This document shows, piece by piece, positions 11,415-64,000 of a stretch of 64,000 nt of DNA. The notes beneath the pieces were generated by a model that was not told the DNA's origin, did no database searches, and was given only the letters and a program-made list of their open reading frames with translations. Where the stretch lies: assembly GCA_020697715.1 (NCBI GenBank), contig JAEHCO010000001.1:2222-66221 (forward strand), given 5' to 3'. A program made the position numbers and the translations under genes. Numbering within the stretch: position 1 is the stretch's first letter; the number at the start of each line of letters is the position of its first letter. The stretch comes from Methanobacteriota archaeon (lineage in GTDB: Archaea > Thermoplasmatota > Thermoplasmata > SG8-5 > JAGLSY01).

Positions 11415-11435
11415 ATATCTGAGTTATTGGTAAGA

Positions 11436-13560: not shown

Positions 13561-13587
13561 TCAGCTTCGGCCTACGACCGAAGCTGA
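13561..13587 (-). terminator. Perfect 10-bp-stem hairpin followed by T-rich tract, likely terminator of the opp operon
   Basis: TCAGCTTCGG-CCTACGA-CCGAAGCTGA inverted repeat 17 nt downstream of oppF stop; T-rich run on gene strand. Confidence 0.5.
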
Positions 13588-13603
13588 CATTATGTTTTTC
13601 CTA

Positions 13604-14713: not shown

Positions 14714-15738
14714 CTCACCTCCTTCAATTGGCCATTGAACAGCTCAAGCGCGAAATGACACAAGGAAAAGTGGTTTGGTTCAACCTCGATCGTCTCTGGT
14801 TCCTGGTCCTTACATATTTCCTTTGCATATTTGCATCTTGGATGGAATTTACATCCAGATGGTGGGTTTGCAAGGTCAGGTGGTGAACCAGGGATAGAAT
14901 AGAGTGGTTTCTTCTCACCAATGATACTTGGGAAAGAAGCAAGCAGACCCATAGCGTAAGGGTTCGCCGGTCTCTCAAATACCGCATCTATATCACCGTA
15001 CTCGAAGATCCTTCCAGCATACATGATACCTATCTTCTCAGCCACTTCCGCGACCACAGATATATCATGAGTGATGATGATCATAGCCATGCCCAGTTTC
15101 CTCTGAAGATCTCTGATCTCCGCCAGGACACGATCCTGCATGATCACATCCAATGCAGTCGTTGGTTCATCAGCTATAATGAGCTTCGGGTTGCAGGCAA
15201 GAGCCATAGCGATCATACCCCTCTGTCTCATTCCACCACTGTACTCGTGTGGATATCCATCTATTCTCTCAGAATCAAGCCCAACGAGCTTGAAAAGCTC
15301 AAGAACTCTTTTTCTTGCTTCCTGCTTAGTGATATCATCATGAGCCCTTATGGCTTCCGCTATCTGGTCTCCGACCTTAAATACAGGATTGAAAGCATTC
15401 ATCGCACTCTGGAAGATCATAGCTACTTCATCCCATCTAAAGTCGACCATGGTATTCTCCACGAACTTCTTTCTCTTTCTGGGGGATAGAGCCATTTCCT
15501 CTTCGCTTCCGGCAATGACCGTACCGTCGAAGGTTATCGTACCTTCGACGATGTCACCGTTATCTGGAAGAAGCCTGGTGATCGCATAGGCTGCTGTTGT
15601 CTTACCACATCCAGATTCACCGACAAGGCCAAGGGTCTCCCCTCTGTCCAGCTTTAGTGTTACTTTCTCGACAGCCTTGACTGTTCCTCTTTGAATGCCG
15701 TAATGCACACTTACATTATCTATTTCTAACAGTGCCAT
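14710..15738 (-). CDS. Oligopeptide/dipeptide ABC transporter ATP-binding protein (OppD/DppD-like)
   Basis: 342 aa; Walker A GESGCGKTT, signature YSGGMRQR; 4-nt overlap with oppF-like gene. Confidence 0.9.
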   Translation of the reverse strand: MALLEIDNVSVHYGIQRGTVKAVEKVTLKLDRGETLGLVGESGCGKTTAAYAITRLLPDNGDIVEGTITFDGTVIAGSEEEMALSPRKRKKFVENTMVDFRWDEVAMIFQSAMNAFNPVFKVGDQIAEAIRAHDDITKQEARKRVLELFKLVGLDSERIDGYPHEYSGGMRQRGMIAMALACNPKLIIADEPTTALDVIMQDRVLAEIRDLQRKLGMAMIIITHDISVVAEVAEKIGIMYAGRIFEYGDIDAVFERPANPYAMGLLASFPSIIGEKKPLYSIPGSPPDLANPPSGCKFHPRCKYAKEICKDQEPETIEVEPNHFSLCHFALELFNGQLKEVR

Positions 15739-15743
15739 TTAAA

Positions 15744-28591: not shown

Positions 28592-28648
28592 CCTGATTAT
28601 CTCTAAAAGGTAATCGGGCGGCGGGATAATAACATTTCCGTAATATTG

Positions 28649-32359: not shown

Positions 32360-32415
32360 CCGGCTTCCTCTGAATGGGAATCGGGTGGCAAGATAATAAC
32401 ATTTCCGTAATATTG

Positions 32416-35400: not shown

Positions 35401-35610
35401 AATGTAAGGGTTGCCAATACTACCATCTCCACCACCGAAAGCTCCTCCGGCAAGTGGGACAGGGCCGGGAACAATTTCCTCACCCTCTACATTCGCGGTC
35501 ATATCCAGCATCACAAAAAGTGAGCTGAGAACTAGCATAGAACTGATAATTAATGTGGCTGTTTTCTTCATGATATCATTTCCCCTATCAATGTGAGGGA
35601 AATGCACCAT
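32416..35610 (-). CDS. Giant surface protein, paralog of 28649-32359 (GLUG repeats, Ig-like, TSP3-like repeats, sequon stalk, TM anchor)
   Basis: 1064 aa; same architecture and near-identical C-terminal module; downstream flank ATAATAACATTTCCGTAATATTGTTAAG duplicated after both paralogs. Confidence 0.75.
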   Translation of the reverse strand: MVHFPHIDRGNDIMKKTATLIISSMLVLSSLFVMLDMTANVEGEEIVPGPVPLAGGAFGGGDGSIGNPYIVEDVLDLYYIRLDMNASYVLGNDIDATITNIWDSGAGFTPIGNTTSKFNGSLDGQGFEIINLIINRSTTDQVGLFGIISETASLTGIGLNNSDIDGQDTVGGLVARNMGTITDCYSTGYVTGIFDVGGLVGTNNGGTITYCYSTSSVNGISWTAGGFVGLNFVGNISNCYSTGTSTAVEYTGGFVGQNQADIINCYSTGDANGVDDYAGGFTGSNSGTITNCYSTGNAISFASGDYYGGFIGLNNNLVSNCYSTGNASGDDHVGGFIGLNGNPVSNCYSTGDASGANNVGGFIGLNGNTASNCYSTGDATSIDHYVGGFVGFNIGGTIINSYSTGIVNGDMYVGGFVGYIDNSQVTNCYSTGSATGIFDYVGGFAGFMTNVGTITNCYSTGSASGHMYIGGFVGWNEGPITASYSTGGATGTDSYVGGFVGINEVGSITACYSTGSSIGTIEYVGGFSGQNHGIIANCYSMGNAIGNDRVGGFTGYVWGIGTIKNCYSTGRAIGNLNSGGFAGYNNSGAIIDCFWDTDTSVTGIGIGAGGLTGATGKTTAEMKQQATFNPPWNFTNVWGIMETTSYPYLTPFSTIISTGQVTMMDTAIEDSNYMIVFDSALQPLPGSGMMQWGLETDATGWLSISSFGVISGTPLNVDVGTYYANITATDPVGHQGFYNYTFDVENMGPSITTPDVPSTNTGALYSVDYDSTDDPSTTWNLSGNVTGWLSIDNDGILSGTPNNAQAGIYNVEVTVDDGNGANDTRIFTLTVDLDTDNDGQPDTTDLDDDNDGTPDTSDDFPLDPTMVSDNDGDGIDDSVDDDDDNDNWDDAVEIAGGFDPLDDTDLPPDDDNDGIADFMDSDFLIVTEYNNQTIWNNETVPEYNNQTIWNNETVPEYHNQTIWNNETIPEYHNTTEWANNTIPEYHNTTVWNNGTADPSTQDTVIETPAWAWGAVIAAVVMGVLAVIGFTRGGSGGKPEGVEGSPEPDAEIEVEAEGQGEPDIS
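32657..32840 (-). repeat. In-frame 42-bp tandem repeat (about 4.4 copies, two identical) encoding 14-aa double-sequon units (PEYHNQTIWNNETV)
   Basis: Units start at 32657, 32699, 32741, 32783, 32825; 32741-32782 is identical to 32783-32824. Confidence 0.8.
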
Positions 35611-44915: not shown

Positions 44916-46472
44916 ATGGCTGAGACACTCACCATACTGAAAGGCGTCAGTATAAATGATGACGGCCAGGTATCCATGGATCTCAGAGAATGGAGCATTG
45001 AGGATATCGTATCCACCATGAGCAAGGTGTTCGATTCGCTGATCGCGGTCTCCGCTATCACCAAAGGTGATGAAAAGGCCTACCTGGAAGCGGATGATTC
45101 CGTAATGAGGATAAAAAATCAATTCAAGTCCCAATTTGTCTCACTTGGCATAGAGAAGCATATCCTGAAGGGAGGTTTGAGATCCCATCTGGACGTGGGA
45201 ATTGAAGGAGCGGATAAGGTATTGGGGGGAGGGATCCCCAAAGGCAATACCATATTATTGCTCGGACCACCTGGAAGTGAGAAATACTTATTCGCATACC
45301 AATATATAATCCAGGGACTGAGGGATGGAAGTGCATGTCTTATCAGCACATCGGTCACTGACCATAAAGGAATGAAGAACAATCTTTCAAAGTTGAAGAT
45401 CAAGCCATCCACATTCGAGGGCCAGGGATTATTGAAGACCATCGACTGGTATTCTTATAAGAAAGAAAATCTGGTGGGTGTGGAGGATGATGGAAATGTT
45501 TTCAGAGCGTCCAAGGACATAACCAATCTTGATATCGCGATAGGATCGGCTGTCAACAAGCTCTCCTTTGCCCCGACAAAAAGAGCGATGCTGGATATAA
45601 TATCACCAGCACTCAATATCTATGATCATTCCATGGTCATAGAGTTCGTTCAAAAGGAGAAGAACCTATTGAAGACTAAGGGCTTCACGACACTTCTGGT
45701 GGTTGAGAGCGGAGCTCATGATGAAAGAACATTGTCCACTCTTAAACATCTTTCAGACGGTGTGTTGATTATCGAGAAAGGCAGCAAAGGCCAGCTTACA
45801 TTCAAAGTAGAAGCTTTATCTGGCATGAAGTTCGACCAGAAGGCCCATCGCATCAAGGTGACCAAGAAAGGTCTGGAGATCATTTCCAATGTGAAGGATG
45901 AAAGCTCCATATTACAGGATCTGCAAGAAATACCAGCGATTGACAAAATAACAGCAGAAAAACTTATCGAGGCTGGCTTCACCAGCATGGAAAAATTGGA
46001 AAAGGCGAAGAAGTCGGAACTGGAAAGTGTTACAGGCATTGATGCGAATGTGTCCAATAAGATCTACGAATACATACATTCTGTAGAATATTCAAAGAAG
46101 ATAATAGAGAGAAAGAGCCAGAACTGGGTAAGGAAAGGATTGCAATTCATTGGTAAAAAAGAGATAGACAAGGGAATGCAAAGTTTCCAGAGGGCGATAG
46201 AGATCCACCCCAAGAACTCAAGTGCGTGGCTGGAGATGGCCAGGCTTCTTTACAATGAAGGTAGCAAAGATGATTCCAGAAAATGCTTTGACAAAGCTTT
46301 GGAGATCGATCCCACATTGGCAAAAGAATGGTTCGATAAGACCGAGGTACAGGAAGCTGGATGGGGCTGTCCCGTATGTGGGTTCTACATAAAGGAAGAA
46401 AATATCGAATGCCCTGAATGTGGTGTCATATTCAGTGTTGAAGAAAGAGAGAGCCAGAGGGATCAAATATGA
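44916..46472 (+). CDS. KaiC/RecA-like domain protein fused to helix-hairpin-helix, TPR and C-terminal zinc ribbon
   Basis: 518 aa; KaiC-like core (GIEGADKVLGGGIPKGNTILLLGPPGSEKY) with atypical P-loop lacking GK[ST]; HhH (IPAIDKITAEKLIEAGF…VTGIDANVSNKI); TPR-like pair; CPVCG…CPECG; start uncertain. Confidence 0.65.
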   Translation: MAETLTILKGVSINDDGQVSMDLREWSIEDIVSTMSKVFDSLIAVSAITKGDEKAYLEADDSVMRIKNQFKSQFVSLGIEKHILKGGLRSHLDVGIEGADKVLGGGIPKGNTILLLGPPGSEKYLFAYQYIIQGLRDGSACLISTSVTDHKGMKNNLSKLKIKPSTFEGQGLLKTIDWYSYKKENLVGVEDDGNVFRASKDITNLDIAIGSAVNKLSFAPTKRAMLDIISPALNIYDHSMVIEFVQKEKNLLKTKGFTTLLVVESGAHDERTLSTLKHLSDGVLIIEKGSKGQLTFKVEALSGMKFDQKAHRIKVTKKGLEIISNVKDESSILQDLQEIPAIDKITAEKLIEAGFTSMEKLEKAKKSELESVTGIDANVSNKIYEYIHSVEYSKKIIERKSQNWVRKGLQFIGKKEIDKGMQSFQRAIEIHPKNSSAWLEMARLLYNEGSKDDSRKCFDKALEIDPTLAKEWFDKTEVQEAGWGCPVCGFYIKEENIECPECGVIFSVEERESQRDQI

Positions 46473-47413
46473 GCTTGGGCAAGAAGGCCTTCGCCTCGGC
46501 TCCCTGTAGCTTGACATTATTGGGATATGACCTACACGATCATATTGGAACCTCTGTGGGGATCGCACTGGATAAGCGAATAAAATGTGAGACCATGATA
46601 TCGGAAAGCTTCATGGTCAATAACGATGTCTATGATGGGAACAAATATCCTTATGTTAGGGCGGCTCTGCTTCATGGATGGAGCGATATTGACACCCCTG
46701 TCTCATTCGAGATAGATGATATTACGATCCCAGATAATGTCAGTGGCTATGGACCTGGACATATCGCCTCCACCCTGGGTTCCCTGTCAATGATGAACGA
46801 CAATCTGATGTTCGAGGATATCTTATTGAAAGGCCATGAGATATTGAAGGAGAATGATAGCAAGATGGGGGTATTGGGACTATCCACCGCTATCAATGGA
46901 TATGGCACTGTATTATCCAATGAGATCGGCAAAGGCCACTTATGGAGTGTGGGAAAGGGGAAGAAAGCGAGGCACATCCATCATCTCGACATGCCGGATA
47001 TGACATTCGTTCTCGCATTTCAGAAGGGTGGATCTGGGAAAGAGGATTTCTCTGGAAAGTTCAATAATTTCGCCAGGCGTCAGAGTGGCTTCTTCAAAGA
47101 CATGCTGAAGGATTCGGCAAAGCTGGCTAAAAAAGGTCTTCAGGCTTTGGAGCGTGGGGATATGGAAGGGCTTGGCCAGGCCATGAACGAGACCGACAAG
47201 TTGACGAAGACGATGGGCATGTACACGCCAGAACTGAAAGTCGTGGCCGACCTGTGCAGGAGCCAGGCATTTGGAGCGAGGCTTTGCATATCGGAGAAAC
47301 ATGCGTATGTGGTGACTTTGACCAATGAGCCGGAAGAATTGGCCAGCAATATCCGGGAAAAGGGACATATCGCGATGGTCGCTGGCATATCCCGCGATGG
47401 ATTGCAGATATAA
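46469..47413 (+). CDS. GHMP-kinase-like protein (divergent; function unassigned)
   Basis: 314 aa; weak GHMP-type motifs (APCSLTLLGYDLHDH…, Gly/Ser-rich loop PGHIASTLGS, C-terminal GARLCISEKHAYVVTL); 4-nt overlap with upstream gene. Confidence 0.4.
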   Translation: MSLGKKAFASAPCSLTLLGYDLHDHIGTSVGIALDKRIKCETMISESFMVNNDVYDGNKYPYVRAALLHGWSDIDTPVSFEIDDITIPDNVSGYGPGHIASTLGSLSMMNDNLMFEDILLKGHEILKENDSKMGVLGLSTAINGYGTVLSNEIGKGHLWSVGKGKKARHIHHLDMPDMTFVLAFQKGGSGKEDFSGKFNNFARRQSGFFKDMLKDSAKLAKKGLQALERGDMEGLGQAMNETDKLTKTMGMYTPELKVVADLCRSQAFGARLCISEKHAYVVTLTNEPEELASNIREKGHIAMVAGISRDGLQI

Positions 47414-52122: not shown

Positions 52123-52527
52123 TCATTTCTTATATTTGTGGATCAACATCTTGTCCCAGTCCACATCATTCTCAAAGCCCTTGCTTTTCAGATATCGACT
52201 CATGGACTCGGTGACCCTGGCCACTTCCAATGACTTGGCTGAATGGTAATGTCCGTAGATGTACATCTCCAGGTCATCTGATTCTTCCTGGATCGGGAAT
52301 ATCATTCTCATGCGTCCCTGGCGATTGTAACCTTCTGGCTTCTTGTTCTTTTCCAGATCGATGAGGTTCTCCTTTATCATCATATTGACCACCTCTTCCT
52401 CTTCGGGTGTCTGGTCCGTGTCCTCCAGGAACTTGAGGTACATCTCTGAGAATATAGGTGTGAAGTCCTTGTATTGCACACCCTTGTCAAATTTTATGTG
52501 TCCGCTTCTTACTTTCATATTGATCAC
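52123..52527 (-). CDS. Hypothetical small acidic protein
   Basis: 134 aa ORF downstream of pilin gene; no recognisable family. Confidence 0.4.
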   Translation of the reverse strand: MINMKVRSGHIKFDKGVQYKDFTPIFSEMYLKFLEDTDQTPEEEEVVNMMIKENLIDLEKNKKPEGYNRQGRMRMIFPIQEESDDLEMYIYGHYHSAKSLEVARVTESMSRYLKSKGFENDVDWDKMLIHKYKK

Positions 52528-52649
52528 TTTTCTATACTATCCAAAATAGGATGGAGTGATATTTAATGGTTGTGGCTAAGAATTCGAATGTGTTATTCGG
52601 ATCAGAAATGAGAATAATAATAATAATAATAAGTAAAGAGGAACAAGCA

Positions 52650-52695
52650 GAGAAGGATAATAAAAAAGAGAAGATTTGCGGGTCCGAAGACCCGC
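52650..52695 (-). terminator. Hairpin (GCGGGTC-CGAA-GACCCGC) followed by T-rich tract, terminator of pilin gene
   Basis: Perfect 7-bp stem with tetraloop at 52678-52695, 30 nt downstream of pilin stop; T-rich run on gene strand. Confidence 0.5.
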
Positions 52696-52724
52696 ATTAA
52701 CTTAGTTGATTAGCGATAGCTGGC

Positions 52725-53231
52725 TTACATATTCAGTAAGCTGCCGCCGCTCATCTGGATCTCTTGTCCGTCTAGGTCGACTATTGTAATTTCGTATTCA
52801 CCAGCCTGTGCGTTTGCCCAGGTCAATGTTACGTAGTCTCCACTGTTTATAAGAGAGTTGGCTCCGATATCAGTTGCTACTGCAGTGATATCCTGTCCAG
52901 CGCCAGATTTTGCAACAGAAATTGCTGTTGGCGGATTGGCATCAAACGATAATACATAACTAGTGGAATTAACACCAGCTATTGTTATTGTTATGTCTGT
53001 CCATTCGATATCTGTGCTGAACGATCCGAACTTCATTGTTGCGGTTGTTGAAGAGTCCTTATCGAGCTCTGACCAGTTTCCTGTTGCAGCTACACTGCCT
53101 CCACCGCCAAAGTCCATGACCATGACGTAAAGCACAGCAGCCAAAACCACGGTGATAGCGACCATCAAAATGGTAGCAATAACCGGAGACACTGCGTCGT
53201 CCTTCTTTCTTATATTCCATGTGTTTTTCAT
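52725..53231 (-). CDS. Archaeal type IV pilin-like protein (class III signal peptide)
   Basis: 168 aa; N-terminus MKNTWNIRKKDDAVSPVIATILMVAITVVLAAVLYV matches the prepilin-peptidase-processed motif; beta-rich Thr/Ser-rich C-terminal domain. Confidence 0.65.
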   Translation of the reverse strand: MKNTWNIRKKDDAVSPVIATILMVAITVVLAAVLYVMVMDFGGGGSVAATGNWSELDKDSSTTATMKFGSFSTDIEWTDITITIAGVNSTSYVLSFDANPPTAISVAKSGAGQDITAVATDIGANSLINSGDYVTLTWANAQAGEYEITIVDLDGQEIQMSGGSLLNM

Positions 53232-53367
53232 ATATTTTGTCCTCCTGTAGACTATAAGCCTACGTAATTATAGATTACAAGGACAATATATTTATAGTTT
53301 TCTCAAAATAATACGGCAATCAACGTATATACATACGGCAAATACCGATGCATTGTGCCTCAAAGGA

Positions 53368-54120
53368 TCATATGTTCTTTGCGGATATACCCTTATCATC
53401 TATGTTGCATGATAAGATCTTAGTTTTCTCTGGGTGATTCCTCACCTTCCTTATCAGCAGATTCCTTGTGAAAGTGGAGCCCTCTCTGAGCCTCTCCAGT
53501 TCTATTGTGATATCCACTATATCCTGGACACCACTTTCCACGCGATTGTCAAAAACCCCTTTCAGCATCGTGACGAGGGCTATGCCATTATTTAGTTGAG
53601 TATGAGCCTTGATGGTCCTTATGGCGGAAAGCACATCAGCCTCATCATAATACTCTAGGAAGAAATCCAGAGAATCCAATACGATCCTAAATGGTGGTTT
53701 GAGCTTCGATATACCATATGTGAGCGTGGTCAGGAAATTGACATCCATGCTTTGTTCAGCCTGGGCGGCATTGAATTGCTTGATATCTCGCATTTTCAAT
53801 CCTTCCTGGCGATACTTGCTAACTTCCAGGTTCTTGGCCAGAACCTTCTCATAATACATCTTGCCGATATTCACGACCCTGATATCCTGCTTCCACCCGA
53901 ATTCACCCATGGCGGTCTTAACAGCCTCATCACTTTCAGTGGTGGAGAAATAGGTAACGTTCTCATTTCCTATTCCAGCTGCTGCAAACTGCTTGGCAAA
54001 TAGCTCGACACCGGTTCCGGGTATACCGGTGATCAATATCGTACATCCTTTCGGAACACCATCCATCAGGGATTTATCCAGCTCCTTCACACCTATGCTG
54101 GTAGTTTCGATCAAACTCAT
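53368..54120 (-). CDS. KaiC/RecA-like ATPase domain protein (third of triad)
   Basis: 250 aa; P-loop-like GIPGTGVELF (non-canonical) and KaiC-type fold; 4-nt overlap with upstream gene. Confidence 0.7.
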   Translation of the reverse strand: MSLIETTSIGVKELDKSLMDGVPKGCTILITGIPGTGVELFAKQFAAAGIGNENVTYFSTTESDEAVKTAMGEFGWKQDIRVVNIGKMYYEKVLAKNLEVSKYRQEGLKMRDIKQFNAAQAEQSMDVNFLTTLTYGISKLKPPFRIVLDSLDFFLEYYDEADVLSAIRTIKAHTQLNNGIALVTMLKGVFDNRVESGVQDIVDITIELERLREGSTFTRNLLIRKVRNHPEKTKILSCNIDDKGISAKNI

Positions 54121-54689
54121 TCACCCCCTATGGTTATCGTGGTATCACATACCAACTTCATCATATTGGATATCTCTTCAGTGCTGAACTCTTCCATTGT
54201 GAAGACCATGGAATAGGCATCCTTGGCTCTCAGATTGTTTATGAATATATGCAAGAATTCGGACAGGATCTTCATATTATTGTGAATACCCAGGGCATTT
54301 ATGGCATCTAAAACAATGACATTGTTCTTGCCATCTGATTTCCTTATGAGGTATTCCACCTTCAGCATGATGTTCTCCAGCATGGTGGGGCTTTCCACAT
54401 AGAGCACGTTCTTGTATTTCTTGGCCCCTCCGACCATGATATGGGAAACACAGTCCACGAAGTAAATATTGGTAAGATCGATCTCCAGGATCTTCAAGAC
54501 ATCGATTATTGAATGTGATGGAATAGCCACCGTGATGTAGATGACATTCAAATTCTTCTTATTGGCGAAGATATCCACTATTCCCCTTATGGCATCGAAA
54601 TAACTATCACTGACTATCTTCAGGTTTATAGCGGATGAAGGTGGGAGCTCATGAAGCTCATCTGCCAGATCGCCAGGTGATTTGATCAT
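54117..54689 (-). CDS. KaiC/RecA-like fold protein lacking recognisable Walker A (second of triad)
   Basis: 190 aa; matches C-terminal part of KaiC-like fold (NVIVLDAINALG) without P-loop; 4-nt overlaps on both sides. Confidence 0.5.
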   Translation of the reverse strand: MIKSPGDLADELHELPPSSAINLKIVSDSYFDAIRGIVDIFANKKNLNVIYITVAIPSHSIIDVLKILEIDLTNIYFVDCVSHIMVGGAKKYKNVLYVESPTMLENIMLKVEYLIRKSDGKNNVIVLDAINALGIHNNMKILSEFLHIFINNLRAKDAYSMVFTMEEFSTEEISNMMKLVCDTTITIGGE

Positions 54690-55438
54690 AGACCACCACC
54701 GCCCTTGAGCAATGGAACAAGTAATACGCCCGCGGGTGTCAGATCCAGAACATATTTCGCTCTGGAATGTACTGTTCCTCTCATTTTCACCACTTGCAAT
54801 GTCCTCAGAAGGTCTCCCCTCCGCTCATAATTCCCCATAAGGACGATACCATCCGCGATGGCTTCCTCCACCCCGTAGAGCGAGTACCTGTCGGCAGATG
54901 GTGATATTTCGGATATCAGAAGACTGGTGCAACCCCTGGTAGAAAGAGCTTTTCCTATCTTCAATATGAATTCCCTTATCTTCTCCTCTGTTTTCAATCT
55001 GTAGCAAACGGAGGTTATGGAATCTATGACCAATCTTTTGACAGAAAGCTCATCCACGAGGTTACCCAGTGCACGAACCAGAGTGTCGACATCCTCCAGA
55101 CTGAACTCCACATTTGTCAAACCCAATCTCTCATAGATGACTGGCATATCGACGAATGCCAGTTTTCCTGTTTTTATCAGGGATTCCTCAAAGAAATCAT
55201 ATGGGATGACATTCGTGGTAAGTTTCTCAGATGATTCTGTAACTGAAACAAAAAGTGAATTCTCATCGGCCAGAGCCCCATGCACTAAAAATTCAAGGGA
55301 CAGTGTGGTCTTTCCAGTACCGCAACTGCCTGTGAACAAAATGGTATTTCCTCTGGGTATTCCTCCATTTAGAATATTATCCAAACCATCTATTCCTGTA
55401 ACGCAACGTTCTCTCTCAATGATATTTTCTGAGGCCAT
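54686..55438 (-). CDS. KaiC/RecA-like ATPase (first of triad; canonical Walker A)
   Basis: 250 aa; GIDGLDNILNGGIPRGNTILFTGSCGTGKTTL Walker A, Walker B (RLVIDSI), KaiC-type C-terminus. Confidence 0.75.
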   Translation of the reverse strand: MASENIIERERCVTGIDGLDNILNGGIPRGNTILFTGSCGTGKTTLSLEFLVHGALADENSLFVSVTESSEKLTTNVIPYDFFEESLIKTGKLAFVDMPVIYERLGLTNVEFSLEDVDTLVRALGNLVDELSVKRLVIDSITSVCYRLKTEEKIREFILKIGKALSTRGCTSLLISEISPSADRYSLYGVEEAIADGIVLMGNYERRGDLLRTLQVVKMRGTVHSRAKYVLDLTPAGVLLVPLLKGGGGL

Positions 55439-55591
55439 GATTTCCGTTCTCCAATATAGCTAACCATATTTTAATCATTTGCATAAGGATGGATTAATTT
55501 GTAATTACCTGCAAATCTATTTATAAGTCTTAACAGATATATAAAAAACTGTCCATAACATCAAGCAGACATCAAGTAGGAGACTGGCACT

Positions 55592-58500
55592 TTGAGCGAT
55601 TCCACACTTTACCTATGCCCATTTTGTGGCGCCTTCATAAACGAGGAGGCCGAGGTTTGTCCCAATTGCAGCAAACCATTGGAAGAGGAGGTGGAAGGTG
55701 GATTCGAGAAAGAGCTGGATGATCTTATAGATGAAGATCTCAATGCCATGTCAGGAAGTGAATCCTGTCCCAGATGTGGAAAGCAGCTGGAAGAAGGATC
55801 ATTAGAATGCCTGGATTGCAATATGAAGATCGAGGATGGACTGGAACCCGCATCTGAAGGAGAAGAGGAAGGAGTGGCTCTATTCCTTTGTTCAGGATGT
55901 GGGGCTTTTATCAATTCGAATTCCAATGAATGCCCCAAATGTGGTATTTCACTTGATGATGAGGCTGAAGAAGAACATGATTTTGTAGAATATGATAATG
56001 AATTGCTGGATCTCCTTGTTGAGAATGAGCCAGATGAAGAAGATGAGCTTATCCTGGAGTTGGATAGCATAGATGATCCAGAAGATCTGATATCGGTCAT
56101 TGACAAGATGCCGGATATTGAAGATGAAGAGCTATTCGATGATGAACCAGATATCGTACTTGATCTTGATCTGGCAGATGACGATCCGGAAGGCGATCTT
56201 CTTCACATGAACATTGATGATGAAATAGAGAAGACCAGGATAGTGGAATCCATTAGCGAAAGGGTAGCCGGAGAAGTGGCTATCGAAAGTGATAGTGGAG
56301 ATGAGATCATGCTCTGTGGAGAGTGTGGAGCATTTGTCTCCCAATCTTCAAAGGAATGTAATGTTTGTGGAAATGACATAAGACCTGGCAGCCATCTGGC
56401 TATTGAAAAAGATGAGATCCCCTCAGAGAATGATGGCGAAAATACAGAGACCGCCCTGAGGTCCATACTTGGGATATTGGATGATGTCATACTTGATCCG
56501 GATCCAATGGCAGATCATGAGGATGATATTGGCATATGCCAGAAATGTGGAGCTTTCATACCTCATGGCGAGAGTGCGTGTCCCGTATGTCATGCGGACA
56601 AAAAGAGTCTTCCAGATATCATATACACGGAACTGCCTATAGATGATCATGATTCTATGTCCATTTGCGGGGATTGTGGAGCTTTTGTCAAATCCGATTC
56701 AGATACATGTAATGTTTGTGGAGCCAAGGTCGATGCCGATATGCTAAGATCCATAGAGCCAGATGATGTCTTGGAGATGGGGATGGATGCGGATGACCCA
56801 ATGGATATTCTGAAAAAAGCACTGGGTGTGCTGGAATTACGAGATACGACACCAGAGGAAAGGATCGGTGGAGAACTGGATCTATGTCCGGATTGTGGTG
56901 CTTTCGTCTCAGCTAATGCCAAATCATGCTCCATTTGTGGCAGCGATCTGATCCAGGGCACGGATATAAGCCTGGATGATGGCATAGTCATGGATCTGGA
57001 TGATGGATCGGTCATTCTTTCAGACAGTGTTTGTCCCAATTGTGGCTCCAAGTTCGGGGTCGGGGCAGGAGATTGTGAGGTTTGTGGCTTCACATTCCTC
57101 GGTGATGAAAGTGATCATGACGAGAAGGAAATGTCCTATGAAGACAGGGTGGACATATCGGATATCATAGAATTCGAGGTTCCAGAATTGACAAAGGAAA
57201 GCGCTATCGATCACCTCAATGAAATGGAAGATGATATGGATGATCTAATTCTGGATGAAGTAAAGCCTGAATCATCTGCCGAGGTTAAGAGTGGGGAACT
57301 ATCCAATGAAGAAAAGCTGGCCAGGATAGAAAAGGCCTATGAAGAAGGGCAACTTAGCAAGGCCAATTACATAATCAACAAGGCCAAGTTCTACGGACTT
57401 GTTCAGGAAATGAATGAGATAGAAGATGACCTGGATGAGCTTTTGATAGATATTGATGAGACGATGGCCGAGACCGTGGAAGTGCCGACCGAAGAGGATG
57501 AAATAGAAAGTCTGGAGCTTGGAGATCTTCATCTGAATATCGATCCAGATGCTCAGGACGACGAGGATACCCAGCCAGATGTGGAAATGGAATATGATGA
57601 TCTGTCCCTTTCAGAAGATGACATCAAAGAAGGCATCCATGACGGAAAATATGATGATATCATCGAATTCGATGATCAGGATCTGGATCTAACCCAGGAT
57701 GATACTTATCAGGAAGATCTGGATGAGCATATTGAAACTTATGAGGAAGAGGATGAGACCTCGAAAGAGGATGAAACCTCGGATGAGGATGTCATATACG
57801 AAGAGGTCGAGGTCTATGTGGACGAAGATGGCCAGGAAATAGAATATGAAGAGGTCGAGGTAAATGAGGATGACATCGAAGAGTATGAGGAGGATGTCGA
57901 TGATCCTGAAGGAACCGATTTAGATGATCATGACCCCGAGGAAACATATTTCGAAGAGGAAGACGAGATCCATGTACCCTTCAGATCACATGCCATGGCG
58001 GAGACCACTGGAGGACCGCAATATCTCAATCATTCCGGATGGGAATATGGTGTCATCGCATCACTTCTTACATCCCTCTTCTATGTCGCGCTTTCCTCAT
58101 ACATACCCATCAATCCCATATCATTGGCCATAATATTTGGCGTGATACTTATCTTCGCCTTCATAATGATGGTCACATCAAGATCCATATTCATGAAAGG
58201 CGATCTGTACCGTGGTTCCGTGTTCATGATAGGCGGAGTGATAATTTCTTTCATCCTGCTCCATTGGTTCGCGGATATCATGATCGATGATCCGATGGTG
58301 GACAAAATGCTACTGTCGATAGGAATAATGATGATCGGTATAGGAATAATCTGGATAAGGGGCAAGATCCGATATATCCATCTCTGGTTATCCGGCACCA
58401 TATTCCTATTTCTGTTCTCCATAGGAGAGCTTTATTATTTCGAGCAATGGGCCTATTCCCCCATCCAGCCACCAGGAGCGATAGTGGCTGGGATCGGGAT

Positions 58501-59152
58501 ATCTCTGATCGTGGCCAGTTCCATACTGCTGGCCTATGAGAGAAGTCTACACACTTCGATAGAGACGGAGATCGTTCGAGGAGATATGGACTATCTCAAT
58601 AAGAATTACAAGAAGGCATTGCATTCCTATGATAGGGCGCTTGAGAAAAGCACCCTGAAGACCGAATCCGCATTGAAGGCAGATGATACCAGGGAATACG
58701 ATGTCCCATGGTACAGTAAAGGTGCGACCCTGATATTGATGGGTAATTTGAAAGAAGGAATTGAATGTCTGGATATGGCTCTATCCATAAATCCCAATAA
58801 CGAGGTCGCATGGGTGAGCAAGGGAAATGCCTATTCAAAGCTCGGGGACATGAGCAGTGCTTTGGAATCATATAACAATGCATTGATCGCGAACCCCAGA
58901 TACATAATAGCCTGGAACAATAGAGGTAATGCATTTGCCAGGAAGGAGAATTATATCGAAGCCCTGAAGAACTATAACAGGGCGATCAAGCTGGATCCAG
59001 ATTATAAGGACGCGTGGATCAATAAGGGCTATGTCCTGATGAAGATGGGAAAGCAGGATGAGGCGCTCAAATGTGTGTCGATGATAGGGGAGAAAAAGAT
59101 GGGACAGCATGGAGCAGCCAGTACCAATGGCAGTACTAAGGCCTCTGCCTGA
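55592..59152 (+). CDS. Giant membrane protein: eight N-terminal CxxC-N(9-11)-CxxC zinc ribbons, acidic linker, about six TM helices, C-terminal TPR repeats
   Basis: 1186 aa, TTG start; ribbons such as CPFCGAFINEEAEVCPNCSKP, CSGCGAFINSNSNECPKCGIS, CGDCGAFVKSDSDTCNVCGAK; hydrophobic block (…VIASLLTSLFYVALSSY…); four or more 34-aa TPR units. Confidence 0.7.
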   Translation: MSDSTLYLCPFCGAFINEEAEVCPNCSKPLEEEVEGGFEKELDDLIDEDLNAMSGSESCPRCGKQLEEGSLECLDCNMKIEDGLEPASEGEEEGVALFLCSGCGAFINSNSNECPKCGISLDDEAEEEHDFVEYDNELLDLLVENEPDEEDELILELDSIDDPEDLISVIDKMPDIEDEELFDDEPDIVLDLDLADDDPEGDLLHMNIDDEIEKTRIVESISERVAGEVAIESDSGDEIMLCGECGAFVSQSSKECNVCGNDIRPGSHLAIEKDEIPSENDGENTETALRSILGILDDVILDPDPMADHEDDIGICQKCGAFIPHGESACPVCHADKKSLPDIIYTELPIDDHDSMSICGDCGAFVKSDSDTCNVCGAKVDADMLRSIEPDDVLEMGMDADDPMDILKKALGVLELRDTTPEERIGGELDLCPDCGAFVSANAKSCSICGSDLIQGTDISLDDGIVMDLDDGSVILSDSVCPNCGSKFGVGAGDCEVCGFTFLGDESDHDEKEMSYEDRVDISDIIEFEVPELTKESAIDHLNEMEDDMDDLILDEVKPESSAEVKSGELSNEEKLARIEKAYEEGQLSKANYIINKAKFYGLVQEMNEIEDDLDELLIDIDETMAETVEVPTEEDEIESLELGDLHLNIDPDAQDDEDTQPDVEMEYDDLSLSEDDIKEGIHDGKYDDIIEFDDQDLDLTQDDTYQEDLDEHIETYEEEDETSKEDETSDEDVIYEEVEVYVDEDGQEIEYEEVEVNEDDIEEYEEDVDDPEGTDLDDHDPEETYFEEEDEIHVPFRSHAMAETTGGPQYLNHSGWEYGVIASLLTSLFYVALSSYIPINPISLAIIFGVILIFAFIMMVTSRSIFMKGDLYRGSVFMIGGVIISFILLHWFADIMIDDPMVDKMLLSIGIMMIGIGIIWIRGKIRYIHLWLSGTIFLFLFSIGELYYFEQWAYSPIQPPGAIVAGIGISLIVASSILLAYERSLHTSIETEIVRGDMDYLNKNYKKALHSYDRALEKSTLKTESALKADDTREYDVPWYSKGATLILMGNLKEGIECLDMALSINPNNEVAWVSKGNAYSKLGDMSSALESYNNALIANPRYIIAWNNRGNAFARKENYIEALKNYNRAIKLDPDYKDAWINKGYVLMKMGKQDEALKCVSMIGEKKMGQHGAASTNGSTKASA

Positions 59153-62100
59153 CCTGCATGATGCATATTCCGATCATGGTTGCCAGGATCAATGAGAAGA
59201 TATTACTGAACTCGTCAATAATGATTATATCGACCGATGCCACATCACTATCCGGCAGAAGCATGTAGCCACTGGAAGTAGTGTAATTCAATAGTGCCCA
59301 ATTATCAACAGGGCCAGCAAGTGGCGTCGCATTGACTGTCACATTGATGAATATCGCGTATGAGCCGGGCGCGATATTTGTGAAGTACCAGCTAATATCC
59401 TGACCCAGTATTGTCGAAGGAGCTGGAACCGCGCTGTCGAAGATAATTCCAGAGGGTAATGTGTCATTTATCCAGACATTGCCCGCATTGGTCGAGCCAG
59501 TATTATTGTAGAAGATGGTGTACATGATGGTGTCATTGGCATAGGCGGTTGTGACATTGGCGGTCTTCTGGATATCTATAACAGGCCGCTGGCAGGTGAC
59601 ATTGGCCCATGAGGTCTCGGTTCCCAGAGAGTATGTCAAAGTGGCGGAATTGGATAATAATTCCAGATCGGTCGCATTGGCATTCACCTGCACCTCGATG
59701 GTTATGAGATTCGTACTCTGTCTGGGAATCTGGGTGAAGGTCCAGCCAAGATCCTGGCCAACTATCGTCACGGGCAATGGATTGGCGACCACATAATCGA
59801 CATTCGCTGGAAGTACATCATCTATCTGAACATTCCAGGCCTTTCCCAAACCTGTATTATTGTACCATATCTCGTAGGTTATCAGATCGCCTGGTTGGGC
59901 AGTGGTCACATTGGCTGTTTTGGATATGGACATATTGGGGAGTTTAGGTGCCAGTGGATCAATGGGGTCAGAAAGCTCTATTTCTTCTAGCCCAGTCGAT
60001 CGGGATGACCTTGCGGCCTCGGCATTGTGCCTGATACTATTGGTCTCATCCTCCATACCCAGCCAGTCTGACATTTCGATGGCGATGGAGATATCAGATT
60101 GCCTGGATATTCCAAGAAGTCCAAGGGGCACGCCTACCTCAATCCGGGATAGATCATTGGCCCCGGATGCTTTGCCGAGATATGTCCATGGAGTGCTCGC
60201 GGACATCTCCTCATATGAGTATATCTCGCTGGATAGTATCTTATTGTATTTGCCAGTTATAAGGATTAAATGGTCAGCTCCAAGCTGACCATTTAAATAA
60301 TGGCCTGTTTCGATATCATCATCCGCGTCTATGTATATCAACAGATGATCCATACCTTTTCTCTCAATGTGCCTCACAGGGCCGATATAACGGCTTATGA
60401 ACCTGCCAGAATAATTCGCATCATAGCTCTGGGGGATGGTGGTATTGAGCCAATTGTCAACACCTCCAGCATCGTGATCCACTACACCGTCGCCATCACG
60501 ATCCCCATTAGAATTCGCATCATCGACACCGTCATTATTAAAATCATGAGCATATGAGCCATCAGGGCCATCCAGCACATCCGGGACACCATCATTGTCC
60601 GAGTCCAAATTAGGAGAAGTCTGAGTGACATTTTGAGCCGATGGTGTTGATCTGATCCTCAGCACTGGTATTGCGGATCCTCCCATGGCCACCCCACCCA
60701 CGGATGTGTAGATGTTCAGCTCATCATCCATATTCATGCGGTAATCCCTGATATCCACATTCCTGTTCAGGAACTTCAGCTTTGCAGGATCCTTTCCTGG
60801 AACTACCTGATCATTGGCCGCATCGATATTTGGAGGTGTCGATTGCCAGTCTCCAAATGCTCCATCTATCGTCGTACCAGATGGTTGGCCATAGTGTTTG
60901 AGAGATGGTGCACTTACTATCATGTCCAAGTTGACGGTGTCGATCATGCCCACATTCAAAGGCATGAGGCCGATGGTCTGGCCATTCTCTGTCCCGGTCA
61001 ATGTGGATGAAAGAATAAGTTGAGTGATTTCAGACGGCGATAGTGGCATGGGGTCGAATAATTCCAAATGAAGGACCTGGCCGTCCACCTGCATCGAGGA
61101 TAGGCCAACCACCTCGTCAATGACAGGTTCTATCAGGCCATTATCATTCATATCCTTGTATAATGTGAATTGTGAAAGAATATCCGGACTGGATGTTCCC
61201 AATATACGGAAGTCGAGTGAGTCGATCTCCACCTCATCCTCATAGCATACGAGTTCGAAGGAGCAAGAGAGAACATCATCTCTTGCCAGTATATCATTCG
61301 AAGGGTCAGTGATCGACCTTATAGACAGGGATGCGGTATTGGGGATCATTATGCCATCGGAAGTGTCTGTATTTCCTTCGGAATCACTTGTCATGACAAG
61401 GACTGATGGTGACTGGTCTGCCAGATCGCTCATGGCCGTTCTCAGTTCGATCTTATCTCCACTCACCTTACTGGATACCGAGGATATATACATGAACCCA
61501 CTCCAGTCATCAGGATCATGATCATTATCGAATCTCAATAGTTCAGATGCTTCCACATGATTATCATAACCATGAACATCTATCAGGACATCGGCGCCCA
61601 GATTGTCGATGGAATAGCCAGTGCGATTATTCCCATCTGCATCTAGGAAGATATAGATGGAATCCACACCACTGCCATTCGCACTACCACCTTCCATCAT
61701 GGTCCCGTCAACTTGTAGGAAAATGTCAAGATATGGATGATCCAATGAAAATCTAGTATCTACCAGATCTATATCAGGGTTTATGACATCCGATACTTCA
61801 TCGGCATAGGATGTGAACTTATTCCAGTCACTGAAAGCTCCGTCTATCGAGATATCTCGTGTGTCACCATTATTCATATTCTCGGTGAATATCGGCACAT
61901 AGAGTATCAAAGATATCACAATGACAATGGATAAAAAGCCGATCTTCCACCTACGTGCTTTTTGACGATTCCTTCTCAATATAGCCATATCCTGCTTTCT
62001 CTCAACCAAGGAATCACCATTTATGAAACCATCGCCATTAACTATGCCAGAGCCGTTGACCAGGCCATTCGTTAACCCATTGGTCAAGCCATTGGTACGA

Positions 62101-63953
62101 CCTTGACCATTTGTGATTCCATTCGTCCTACCCTGCCCATTCGTTAACCCATTGGTACGGCCTTGACCATTGGTGAGACCGTTCGTTCTTCCCATACCAT
62201 TTGTAAGGCCGTTCGTCCTACCCTGGCCATTAGTTAATCCATGGGCACCACCTTGACCATTGGTCAAACCATTTGTCCTACCTTGACCATTGGTAAAGCC
62301 TTGAGCATGACCGAATTTCCTTCTCATCTTTTCAGAAAGTTCAAGATCATTGGAATGGGATATCTTCTCGGCATCCACATCGTATACCAGAGAATCCAAT
62401 ATGGACTCCAATTCTTCTTCCGTATAGTCCTCTTCTTGATCGTCCACACACTCATCCTGATCGATGACCTCGAATGACTGGTCATCATCATCGTCCTCAT
62501 CATCTAAATCAAATTCAAGGGAATCAAGAAGATCCTGCATCTCTTCATCTGACTCGACCTCATCCATATCCGTATAGCCCAATTCCAATGGATCTTCAAT
62601 TATCTCTCCATCTAAACCGAAAATAATGGGAGTTGGAGCAGTATCCGGCTCATCAGTCTCATCAAGATCAAGAACAAGAGATTCGAGAAGATCGTCCATG
62701 TCTTCATCTGGCTCATCTTCAAGGATTAGCTCGGGTTCATGTTCAATATCATCTTCAAACTCTTCACCCTCAAGATCCAGACCCAATTCTGCCAGGTCGT
62801 CCAATCCATCCAATTCCAATAAGAGCCAGTCCTCTTTGAATGCCTCATCAGAGCCCTGGTCAAGATCAGATATATCGTCATCATCGTGCTCGACCACCTC
62901 GATCCTTTCCAGCTCTTCATCCTTCAATTCCAATAATTCCAGGGAGAACATCTCGTCCTCCAATTCAGCCATTTCAGATCTGAGGATATCGTCCTTCATC
63001 ATGCCCTTCTCTTCGATCTCCATCTGCTTACAGTTCGGGCATGAACTGGAATCTCCCATAACGAAGGTGCCGCAGGACTCGCAGACCGTGAACCCTATGG
63101 TTGGAACTGTCTCGAGAAGGTCTATTTCCTCTTCAGGGTCCTCATCCGGTTCATCCAGCTCCCTGGATAATACCTCATTCACTTCCTTGGACAGGACATT
63201 CACATCTCCGATCTCATCCTCCAGATCACCCAGGGAATTGATGATGGCCTCATCCAGCTTGAATTCCTTCATGTCTATGACATCGTCACAGTTCGGACAG
63301 CTTTCTGCCCCACTGCCCAGGAATGCTCCACAGGATCCGCATATACCAATATCTAGATCCGGGGCGGTCTCAAGCCTATCCACCTCTGGTTCATCCACCA
63401 GGTCCATTTCCAATATCTCATCGATCTCGGAAGATAGCATCTCGCCACATTTGGGACACGTGTCCACATCCCCCTCCACAAATGTCCCGCAGGAACTGCA
63501 CATTTGGAAATCGATCTCCGGTATCGTCTCAAGGAGATCGTCATGCTCATCTGCCAGTTCATTGCCCAATGCTTCTGCGGTGATATCTTGACTGAATATC
63601 TCACCACAGACCCCGCAATCCTCGGATATGGAGCTGATCAATGCACCACAACTCGAGCATCTGGATAATATCTCATCAGTTACATCATCCTCATCTTCCT
63701 CCACCGTGGTGTAACATATTGGACAGACCGCACTGTGCTCGTTCAGAAATGCTCCGCAGTTCCCACATAGGTAAAATTTGATATCAGCAGCATCTTCGCC
63801 AACTGAAAGCCCCAGGAAATTGATTATGTTCTCGATCGCGCCTTTCTCATCCAAGATAAGATCCGAGGTCGAAATACGAGTGCCAGTAATGGAGCCGACA
63901 TCGACTGGCTGACCCAATTGAACATGCATCCGATTCACAATATCATGGTTCAC
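59136..63953 (-). CDS. Giant membrane/surface protein: five or more N-terminal zinc ribbons, acidic region, GxTNG decapeptide repeats, TM, about 1000-aa extracellular region with DUF11-like repeat domains, C-terminal TM
   Basis: 1605 aa from GTG start; reading frame stays open upstream to the window end, so the N-terminus may be truncated; ribbons CGNCGAFLNEHSAVCPICYT etc.; repeats GLTNGQGRTN about nine times; domains TANVTTAQPGDLITYEIWYNNTG and TANVTTAYANDTIMYTIFYNNTG. Confidence 0.7.
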   Translation of the reverse strand: MNHDIVNRMHVQLGQPVDVGSITGTRISTSDLILDEKGAIENIINFLGLSVGEDAADIKFYLCGNCGAFLNEHSAVCPICYTTVEEDEDDVTDEILSRCSSCGALISSISEDCGVCGEIFSQDITAEALGNELADEHDDLLETIPEIDFQMCSSCGTFVEGDVDTCPKCGEMLSSEIDEILEMDLVDEPEVDRLETAPDLDIGICGSCGAFLGSGAESCPNCDDVIDMKEFKLDEAIINSLGDLEDEIGDVNVLSKEVNEVLSRELDEPDEDPEEEIDLLETVPTIGFTVCESCGTFVMGDSSSCPNCKQMEIEEKGMMKDDILRSEMAELEDEMFSLELLELKDEELERIEVVEHDDDDISDLDQGSDEAFKEDWLLLELDGLDDLAELGLDLEGEEFEDDIEHEPELILEDEPDEDMDDLLESLVLDLDETDEPDTAPTPIIFGLDGEIIEDPLELGYTDMDEVESDEEMQDLLDSLEFDLDDEDDDDDQSFEVIDQDECVDDQEEDYTEEELESILDSLVYDVDAEKISHSNDLELSEKMRRKFGHAQGFTNGQGRTNGLTNGQGGAHGLTNGQGRTNGLTNGMGRTNGLTNGQGRTNGLTNGQGRTNGITNGQGRTNGLTNGLTNGLVNGSGIVNGDGFINGDSLVERKQDMAILRRNRQKARRWKIGFLSIVIVISLILYVPIFTENMNNGDTRDISIDGAFSDWNKFTSYADEVSDVINPDIDLVDTRFSLDHPYLDIFLQVDGTMMEGGSANGSGVDSIYIFLDADGNNRTGYSIDNLGADVLIDVHGYDNHVEASELLRFDNDHDPDDWSGFMYISSVSSKVSGDKIELRTAMSDLADQSPSVLVMTSDSEGNTDTSDGIMIPNTASLSIRSITDPSNDILARDDVLSCSFELVCYEDEVEIDSLDFRILGTSSPDILSQFTLYKDMNDNGLIEPVIDEVVGLSSMQVDGQVLHLELFDPMPLSPSEITQLILSSTLTGTENGQTIGLMPLNVGMIDTVNLDMIVSAPSLKHYGQPSGTTIDGAFGDWQSTPPNIDAANDQVVPGKDPAKLKFLNRNVDIRDYRMNMDDELNIYTSVGGVAMGGSAIPVLRIRSTPSAQNVTQTSPNLDSDNDGVPDVLDGPDGSYAHDFNNDGVDDANSNGDRDGDGVVDHDAGGVDNWLNTTIPQSYDANYSGRFISRYIGPVRHIERKGMDHLLIYIDADDDIETGHYLNGQLGADHLILITGKYNKILSSEIYSYEEMSASTPWTYLGKASGANDLSRIEVGVPLGLLGISRQSDISIAIEMSDWLGMEDETNSIRHNAEAARSSRSTGLEEIELSDPIDPLAPKLPNMSISKTANVTTAQPGDLITYEIWYNNTGLGKAWNVQIDDVLPANVDYVVANPLPVTIVGQDLGWTFTQIPRQSTNLITIEVQVNANATDLELLSNSATLTYSLGTETSWANVTCQRPVIDIQKTANVTTAYANDTIMYTIFYNNTGSTNAGNVWINDTLPSGIIFDSAVPAPSTILGQDISWYFTNIAPGSYAIFINVTVNATPLAGPVDNWALLNYTTSSGYMLLPDSDVASVDIIIIDEFSNIFSLILATMIGICIMQVRQRP
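62020..62310 (-). repeat. In-frame 30-bp tandem repeat (about 9 copies) encoding GLTNGQGRTN decapeptides
   Basis: Recurrent CCATTGGT…CCTTGACC units on plus strand at 30-bp period inside the giant gene. Confidence 0.6.
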
Positions 63954-64000
63954 GAAACTGGGAGAGATGACATGAACGGACGTGATATCCTTATCCTGCA

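Follow-up and report, generated by a model that had tools for sequence, protein, structure and literature searches.

In archaea, KaiC-family ATPases are encoded near type IV pilus (T4P) loci, where they have been predicted to act as regulators (Makarova, Koonin & Albers 2016, PMC4858521). According to Makarova, Galperin & Koonin 2017, in so far as that work is cited in PMC5847659, inactivated KaiC-like (iKaiC) domains such as DUF835 and MEDS are signalling modules, and the KaiC-like ATPases have been proposed to constitute an archaeon-specific 'KaiC signalling hub'. ArlH is described in a preprint (bioRxiv 10.1101/2021.03.19.436134) as the KaiC-like partner of the archaellum ATPase ArlI, and in Haloferax volcanii the loss of the KaiC-like protein CirA de-represses arl transcription and suppresses the pilin-less motility defect (PMC10983859). 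Here we describe a cassette of three KaiC-like genes (KaiCa, KaiCb and KaiCc, together the trio) and a type IV pilin gene, found in a stretch of 64,000 nucleotides from a Thermoplasmatota archaeon (GenBank assembly GCA_020697715.1, contig JAEHCO010000001.1, positions 2,222 to 66,221; this whole stretch is called the window, and coordinates refer to it). An original prediction had joined these four genes and two giant zinc-ribbon membrane proteins, all within 11 kb, into a single six-gene module; the trio-pilin part of that module proved to be strongly conserved, whereas the six genes are not co-inherited as one system. Like the systems reviewed in PMC4858521, the cassette has single-domain KaiC-like ATPase genes beside a T4P component, and a PilA/Pilin_N pilin that often lies apart from the assembly genes. 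Unlike them, the trio adjoins pilin genes alone and not a VirB11/TadC operon, and it has a fixed composition, one active and two apparently inactivated paralogues, conserved across Thermoplasmatota.

Gene calls were taken from the list of open reading frames (ORFs), and domains were assigned by Pfam and NCBIfam profile searches, with Pfam cut-offs of 26.6 bits for PF06745, 25.2 bits for PF07790 and 27.3 bits for DZR (PF12773). The genes of the cassette and the signals that flank the pilin are located as follows.

54686-55438, minus strand: KaiCa, single-domain KaiC-family ATPase, gene 1 of the trio (PF06745 and Walker motifs)
54117-54689, minus strand: KaiCb, an iKaiC without a P-loop (homologue alignment, AlphaFold2 and Foldseek)
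53368-54120, minus strand: KaiCc, KaiC-family paralogue with a degenerate P-loop (PF06745 and motif conservation in orthologues)
52725-53231, minus strand: PilA-type (Pilin_N) type IV pilin precursor (Pfam and NCBIfam, above cut-off)
53287-53300, minus strand: TATA-like box AAACTATAAATATA, putative pilin promoter (sequence inspection)
52677-52696, minus strand: hairpin and T-rich run, terminator-like, 3' of the pilin (sequence inspection)

The three KaiC-like genes are coupled by two 4-nt overlaps (KaiCa/KaiCb and KaiCb/KaiCc), in agreement with the original prediction. KaiCa consists of one KaiC domain of 250 aa (PF06745, 186 bits, 9e-55) and has PDB sequence matches to KaiC (8zn5, 5e-54) and to PH0186 (1e-40); its Walker A (GSCGTGKT) and Walker B (RLVIDSI) motifs are nearly invariant across 76 orthologues. 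KaiCc also passes the PF06745 cut-off (85 bits, 6e-24) and keeps a Walker-B-like VVIDSLDF, and its P-loop is a degenerate, Lys-less G.PG[ST]G[TV]E, a form that is conserved across 56 orthologues. KaiCb narrowly fails the PF06745 cut-off (23.6 bits, 4e-5); the DUF7090 cut-off was not reached, DUF7504 and DUF835 gave no reportable match, and a PDB sequence search returned no match. Walker A is absent from 29 aligned KaiCb homologues, in which VESPTMLEN and LDxIN..IHN are invariant. The AlphaFold2 (AF2) model of KaiCb built from 29 homologues had a predicted local distance difference test (pLDDT) value of 90.7, and a Foldseek search with this model returned PH0284 (E 6e-8, TM-score 0.71-0.73) and also KaiC-CI, FlaH (4yds) and RecA, so that KaiCb is modelled with a RecA/KaiC core fold. 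The KaiC/RecA similarity claimed for all three proteins was thus borne out, by profiles for KaiCa and KaiCc and by AF2 and Foldseek for KaiCb. Since the Walker motifs are intact in KaiCa, lost in KaiCb and Lys-less in KaiCc, the trio is predicted to comprise one catalytically competent ATPase (KaiCa) and two inactivated paralogues (KaiCb and KaiCc), and these active and dead motif states are conserved family-wide.

Identity with circadian KaiC was considered and rejected, the domain being single and the scores low (TIGR02655, 107.6 bits against 546; NF006799, 155.8 against 408). A possible link between KaiCa and KaiCb and the TIGR03877/TIGR03878 'thermo_KaiC_1/2' gene pair gave weak scores (129 bits against 307, and 16.7 bits) and was not used. 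KaiCa is closed by a nearly invariant VPLLKGG tail (54686-54715), which could be a peptide that docks on the TPR domain of either of two proteins described below, ZnTPR or KaiC518. In the complete genome CP070767.1 (loci L002/L027, 9230-9997) KaiCa is split into two ORFs (148 and 107 aa), either a pseudogene or an assembly error, and the rest of the cassette is intact there with three pilins.

The search for KaiCb homologues detected 816 sequences, and a one-genome-per-species scan found KaiCb relatives in 122 species-level genomes, from which 80 loci were inspected (designated by L numbers). All 80 were from Thermoplasmatota, namely Proteinoplasmatales SG8-5, metagenome-assembled genomes (MAGs) labelled Methanomassiliicoccales, soil and groundwater lineages, and DHVE2/Aciduliprofundum; the loci with a KaiCb identity of at least 71% (L006, L007, L008, L009, L087 and L088) were defined as the window's own clade. 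KaiCa lies directly 5' of KaiCb in 70 of 72 loci and KaiCc lies downstream in 55 of 63, one soil clade having KaiCa-KaiCb alone. The KaiC genes are followed by a pilin gene of the same family and on the same strand, in one to four copies, in 44 of the 52 loci with sufficient downstream sequence. Across the loci, the KaiC-KaiC junctions are mostly between -8 and +5 nt, and the pilin follows a further 98-284 nt downstream. This spacing after the last KaiC gene, compared with the tight KaiC-KaiC junctions, points to an operon of the KaiC genes and to the pilin as a separately promoted gene. The surroundings of the cassette vary by lineage: the upstream flank is HPS/RraA, radical SAM or ZnTPR, the downstream flank is RDD/Usp, a methyltransferase, orf134 or MCM, and FeoAB, M50, Tsr3 and AglB are further variable genes of the outer flanks. 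That the KaiC-pilin junction is kept while the outer flanks change is our main argument that the adjacency is functional, beyond mere inheritance.

The pilin passes both family thresholds (PF07790, Pilin_N, 35.4 bits against 25.2; TIGR02537, 51.1 bits against 20). Its N-terminus, MKNTWNIRKKDDA followed by VSPVIATILMVAITVVLAAVLY, is a class III signal peptide, with a cleavage context, DDA directly before VSPVIATILMVAITVVLAAVLY, that was read from the sequence; the class III motif occurs in 54 of 64 cassette pilins, among which AVSPVIATILMVAITVVLAAVLY is nearly invariant. A single-sequence AF2 model of the pilin contained a helix (16-38) and seven strands, with a pLDDT of just 57.9 that was too low for a fold search. 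The TATA-like AAACTATAAATATA sits about 55-70 nt 5' of the pilin ATG, and a GGAGG sits 8-12 nt 5' of it; these are a putative promoter and ribosome-binding site of the pilin's own. On the other side, the hairpin at 52696-52677 (8-bp stem, six GC pairs, then the T-run) begins 29 nt past the pilin stop, hence the description of this gene as a class III signal-peptide pilin with its own terminator stands. A scan for sigma-70 promoters (29 sites against 28.7 expected) was disregarded, as that model is inapplicable to archaea.

Several observations were made in the surroundings of the pilin. The spacer 3' of the terminator (52530-52724) is AT-rich and includes a (TTA)n run. At this site a second pilin gene is present in L006, L007, L009 and L087; the pilin of the window genome is single. 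Beyond it lies orf134 (52123-52527, minus strand, 134 aa), which has no family match and is found directly 3' of the pilins in L006, L007 and L009 (239-274 bits), and in L087 a 131-aa gene without a Pfam match occupies this position. In L019, L039, L043 and L056, mostly of a soil clade, a giant AglB/STT3 oligosaccharyltransferase with CarboxypepD_reg repeats is encoded 3-6 kb downstream of the pilins. The window pilin carries two N-x-S/T sequons, and the AglB/STT3 genes near pilin genes may be relevant to pilin N-glycosylation.

The other genes of the 11 kb are the two giants, of which the first was named ZnTPR; a further KaiC-bearing gene, KaiC518, lies outside the cassette.

55439-55591: AT-rich divergent intergenic region of 153 nt between KaiCa and ZnTPR (sequence)
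55592-59152, plus strand: ZnTPR, 1186 aa (Pfam DZR and TPR_1, hydropathy)
59136-64000, minus strand: second giant, the 3' 1620 codons of a gene cut by the window end (open frame and orthologue alignment)
44916-46472, plus strand: KaiC518, with KaiC, HhH, TPR and a C-terminal zinc ribbon (Pfam)

ZnTPR (DZR, 79.1 bits, 2.7e-22; TPR_1, 1.5e-33) contains, in this order, eight CxxCGAF..CxxC ribbons, a linker with 41% D/E, five to six transmembrane (TM) segments and a C-terminal TPR domain. The divergent region that separates it from KaiCa holds TTTATAAG and ATATATAAAAAA, and at its other end ZnTPR is convergent with the second giant, the 3' ends overlapping by 17 nt. ZnTPR divergently adjoins KaiCa in all six clade loci (L006-L009, L087 and L088), where the orthologues have 30-73% identity, the most diverged being at about 30-36%, and keep six to eight ribbons, and no ZnTPR was found next to the trio among the trio loci outside the window's clade. 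ZnTPR is therefore best read, from its genomic distribution, as a clade-specific partner of the trio that would share a divergent promoter region with it. The comparison of gene neighbourhoods proposed with the original prediction thus showed co-occurrence of the KaiC genes and the pilin over the 80 Thermoplasmatota loci, and confined ZnTPR to one clade. A word-indexed search with the TM region of ZnTPR recovered no sequence, the known orthologue included, and carries no weight.

The frame of the second giant is open to nt 64000, so the window cuts this gene, which does not start at the GTG at 63953. In the nearest relative (L001) the orthologue has 1798 aa, and the window ORF corresponds in alignment to its residues 163-1798. 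The part in the window comprises five ribbons (DZR, 49.1 bits, 6e-13), a linker with 43% D/E, xTNG repeats, a TM segment and an ectodomain of about 900 aa that ends in two DUF11 domains and is followed by a C-terminal TM anchor. The orthologues start with a degenerate KaiC-like domain ahead of the ribbons, which here lies mostly outside the window. When the N-termini of these orthologues were compared with the KaiC domain of KaiC518, hhalign gave a probability of 98.75% (E 1.5e-16, 155 columns), and the N-terminus of the giant homologue in L086 matched the same domain by BLASTP (4e-13); Pfam gave no match on this N-terminal domain, and hhalign against the KaiCa, KaiCb and KaiCc profiles was negative. 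The P-loop of the domain is lost in g1798 and vestigial (GPPGDLKH) in g1801. As the match is to the KaiC518 subtype alone, the possibility that the iKaiC domain of the giant is a paralogue of KaiCb was rejected. The original description of two convergent giants thus holds in that both are membrane proteins with zinc ribbons; it does not hold for the position of the array in the second giant, where the KaiC-like domain precedes it.

The neighbourhood of the second giant differs from that of the trio. In L001 and L086 a canonical KaiC ATPase of 238 aa (KaiC238, PF06745, 8.5e-64) is encoded directly 5' of the giant on the same strand. The gap measures 76 nt in L001; in L086 it is 8 nt, and a winged helix-turn-helix gene there precedes KaiC238. 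The second giant adjoins ZnTPR in L006 and L008, that is, in two of the five clade loci that reach beyond ZnTPR, and in L009, L087 and L088 unrelated genes are found at this place. L086 contains the KaiC238-giant operon, with neither the trio nor ZnTPR within 27 kb; this locus was reached through the four matches of a full-length giant homology search that was swamped by low-complexity words. Given the upstream KaiC ATPase gene of its own and the L086 operon without the trio, the second giant is assigned on gene order to a separate KaiC/iKaiC operon (unit B), and its inclusion in the original module does not survive. L086 also encodes a giant paralogue of 2494 aa (10001-17485, plus strand; HhH, zinc ribbons, LTD, DUF11 and TPR) that follows another KaiC gene (292 aa) and a helix-turn-helix regulator, a third pairing of a KaiC with a giant. 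A giant beside the pilin was considered as a conserved feature and rejected, since the giants near the cassette in other lineages, such as AglB/STT3 (c40), an unknown secreted protein (c23) and a SMODS/DZR protein (L010), are non-homologous.

The originally proposed link of KaiC proteins with zinc-ribbon/TPR giants holds at the level of domain fusions (KaiC518 and the iKaiC domain of the second giant), and not as a single six-gene system. KaiC518 (518 aa) combines a KaiC domain (Pfam, 4e-26) with HHH_5, TPR_1 and a CPVCG..CPECG ribbon of the same CP.CG..CP.CG type as in the giants. It overlaps by 4 nt a 314-aa ORF without a Pfam match (the pair spans 44916-47413, plus strand), and in L006, L009, L017, L020, L021, L031 and L087 the two genes are kept at a distance of about 7 kb from the trio. 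A hidden Markov model search with the KaiCb profile, run without filters, returned 1263 cluster representatives, many of which are larger proteins with a C-terminal KaiCb-like domain. Such domains end soluble giants of 900-1770 aa with TPR/SNAP and CARDB/BatD, and they also occur in membrane proteins with DUF835 (e.g., P0213); the sequences P0161, P0175 (Altiarchaeota MFH0861731.1), P0191 and P0213 all bear them. TPR, β-sandwich DUF11/CARDB, zinc ribbons, iKaiC and active KaiC are thus a recurrent toolkit used in variable fusions, in which KaiC518 may be taken as a 'Rosetta-stone' link of KaiC domains with TPR and zinc ribbons, and not as a cassette member. These fusions offer indirect support for a functional link between ZnTPR and the trio, and they do not unite the six genes as one system.

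Taken together, the 11 kb consist of three separable units, and we propose with moderate confidence that the phylum-wide trio is a KaiC/iKaiC switch for pilin production or pilus assembly, that ZnTPR is its membrane partner, and that the second giant belongs to a separate operon. The anatomy of the genes, their motif states, folds, conservation and separability are shown by the results above; from them we infer heteromer formation, a regulatory target and a direction of signalling, as follows. The translationally coupled KaiCa, KaiCb and KaiCc would assemble in stoichiometric amounts into a hetero-oligomeric ring or stack of the RecA/KaiC type, in which ATP turnover or autophosphorylation would be confined to KaiCa, and KaiCb and KaiCc, the dead subunits, would provide adaptor or partner-binding surfaces. 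Pilin production or pilus assembly would be under the control of this switch, much as the archaellum motor is acted on by ArlH, or arl expression and pilin-dependent motility by CirA. In the window's clade, ZnTPR (unit A') would probably tether the switch to the membrane or feed signals to the trio, with its ribbon array in the cytoplasm, and the TPR domain as well if there are six TM helices. Unit B would be a parallel pair, merely juxtaposed, in which KaiC238 works with a giant bitopic surface protein that has a cytoplasmic iKaiC and ribbons. Because the trio travels with pilin genes and without an assembly ATPase, control of pilin supply or pilin-dependent signalling is tentatively favoured over direct docking on a motor.

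Several results weigh against this proposal. Neither the 64-kb window nor the 10 kb around each of the 80 loci yielded an assembly ATPase for a pilus, a TadC/PilC platform or a prepilin peptidase. The trio occurs without an adjacent pilin in eight loci, of DHVE2/Aciduliprofundum and one other clade, and L088 also lacks an adjacent pilin. Furthermore, the cassette lies within conserved housekeeping synteny, so that the adjacency is in part due to inheritance of gene order. A DNA-binding domain is missing from the trio, and the topology of ZnTPR comes from a simple hydropathy scan.

Some of these results also count for the main rival, in which the trio would serve as a general housekeeping KaiC/iKaiC hub, or as a DNA-transaction complex like those of RadA paralogues, and its adjacency to the pilin would be a frozen accident. 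In addition to the eight loci that keep the trio without a pilin and the missing T4P machinery, the very high conservation of KaiCa, the flanking MCM, aRF1, ArgRS and Tsr3 genes, and the presence of RecA/RadA among the structural neighbours of KaiCb agree with it. However, four or more different outer-flank contexts have the KaiC-pilin junction in an unchanged orientation, and so do loci in which KaiCb identity has fallen to about 50%. It is one pilin family that co-travels with the trio, with full-length alignments even in distant loci. The pilin copy number changes from one to four at exactly the KaiC-adjacent site, and the nearest sequence relatives are KaiC proteins and not RadA. We consider this explanation to be possible though somewhat unlikely.

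In a second rival, the trio would be an ArlH-like ring that docks on a PilB-type ATPase encoded elsewhere, and would act post-translationally and not on pilin expression. FlaH/ArlH (4yds) is among the structural and sequence neighbours, JGI labels members of the family as FlaH, and ArlH itself is described, in the preprint cited above, as the KaiC-like partner of ArlI. Yet no T2SSE/TadC pair lies beside the trio in the 80 loci, and ArlH genes adjoin arlI/arlJ and not filament subunits alone. The identification with ArlH/FlaH was rejected at the level of the equivalog as well (NF052589, cut-off 215; KaiCc 47.2 bits, KaiCa 35.6 bits, KaiCb no match), and docking of this kind is regarded as distinctly unlikely. 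An archaellum was also rejected: no arl genes were found in the window or the 80 loci, and Pfam and NCBIfam gave no Arch_flagellin or Arl matches. A role in anti-phage defence was dropped when PADLOC-DB gave no more than marginal matches of the cassette proteins (E 5e-4 or weaker).

That all six genes are one surface-appendage system is very improbable, and is largely refuted by the comparison of neighbourhoods: all six adjoin here and in the nearest relative (L001/L006), and KaiC-type, TPR and zinc-ribbon domains are repeatedly fused in the lineage, but apart from one clade every trio locus is without ZnTPR, the second giant adjoins it in just two of the five clade loci extending past ZnTPR, has its own upstream KaiC gene and is present without the trio in L086, and the pilin has a TATA-like box and a terminator of its own.

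The switch proposed above can be extended to a more general scheme, which we offer as a speculation and think unlikely. In Thermoplasmatota, a dedicated heteromeric KaiC machine of one active and two dead subunits would control a type IV pilus, and in archaea at large giant surface or membrane proteins would couple to KaiC rings by an iKaiC 'plug' and zinc-ribbon/TPR scaffolds, so that signals would run from a surface adhesin through iKaiC and the KaiC ATPase to a pilus output, the window showing three variants of this design. If true, the coupling of a surface giant, an iKaiC and a KaiC ring would be a previously uncharacterised transmembrane signalling architecture.

The genes elsewhere on the window include topoisomerase VI, aRF1, ArgRS, deoxyhypusine synthase and SMC/ScpAB, all of archaeal type, and the nearest public relative is GCA_020696385.1, a Thermoplasmata-type MAG with a 257-kb contig, to which the identity is 98% for KaiCb and 71-73% for the giants. 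Three other features were noted. A tRNA at 7258-7369 (plus strand, 112 nt, Rfam 49 bits) that ARAGORN missed probably bears an intron. Three large probable surface proteins are encoded in tandem at 26090-35610 (minus strand), two of them GLUG and He_PIG giants (1236 and 1064 aa), and the third a protein with a WD40 propeller and Ig domains (833 aa). An Opp-type ABC permease (BPD_transp_1; 15744-18047, minus strand) contains a beta-propeller/PQQ-like region of about 260 aa (Pfam match, residues 225-483), and the solute-binding protein beside it (995 aa) has a Big_1 domain.

Uncultured Thermoplasmatota of this kind are common in sediments and soils, and the cassette would offer a first handle on the regulation of surface adhesion in them. 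KaiC-like ATPases are, to the extent that the hub proposal is relayed in PMC5847659, the proposed main archaeon-specific signalling hubs, few of which have a defined input or output; a trio of fixed active and dead composition that adjoins a pilin gene in some hundred species-level genomes gives a testable output, and the neighbouring iKaiC-zinc-ribbon giants are candidate inputs. The combination had been described as unnamed, and this is correct in part. The domains here are all of known kinds, and both the KaiC-T4P association (PMC4858521) and the iKaiC/hub idea (Makarova 2017, as cited in PMC5847659) are already published. In the literature searched, Makarova 2017 and the supplementary tables of PMC4858521 aside, no fixed trio of one active and two dead paralogues coupled to pilins phylum-wide was found; nor, with Makarova 2017 aside, was a giant with the order iKaiC, zinc-ribbon array, TM and DUF11 paired with its own KaiC, or the ZnTPR partner.

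When the locus is compared with individual systems, the best sequence and structure matches of KaiCa and KaiCb are cyanobacterial KaiC and PH0186/PH0284, which form hexameric rings of the RecA superfamily; unlike cyanobacterial KaiC, the window proteins have no CI-CII tandem, and no KaiA or KaiB is among the annotated neighbours. ArlH (FlaH) resembles the trio in being a single-domain KaiC-like protein of roughly 230-250 aa that is tied to a type-IV-filament system, and it is a structural neighbour of KaiCb; it differs in that the trio has no arlI/arlJ or archaellin with it, and consists of three paralogues, two of them dead, instead of one. The likeness to CirA lies in a KaiC-like gene beside filament genes, with a genetic link of CirA to pilin-dependent regulation and an effect on the transcription of filament genes; CirA differs in that it adjoins archaellum genes, is a single active protein and belongs to a different phylum. 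The locus also corresponds to iKaiC, as PMC5847659 conveys its definition. DUF835-type iKaiC differs from KaiCb, which stays below the profile cut-offs given above. As in iKaiC, KaiCb, KaiCc and the N-terminal domain of the second giant are of the KaiC fold with a lost or degenerate P-loop and lie beside active KaiC genes, and other proteins combine a KaiCb-like domain with DUF835 and TPR. Hence KaiCb, KaiCc and the N-terminal domain of the giant fit the definition of iKaiC in that form, i.e., KaiC-like fold or homology with the ATPase motifs lost.

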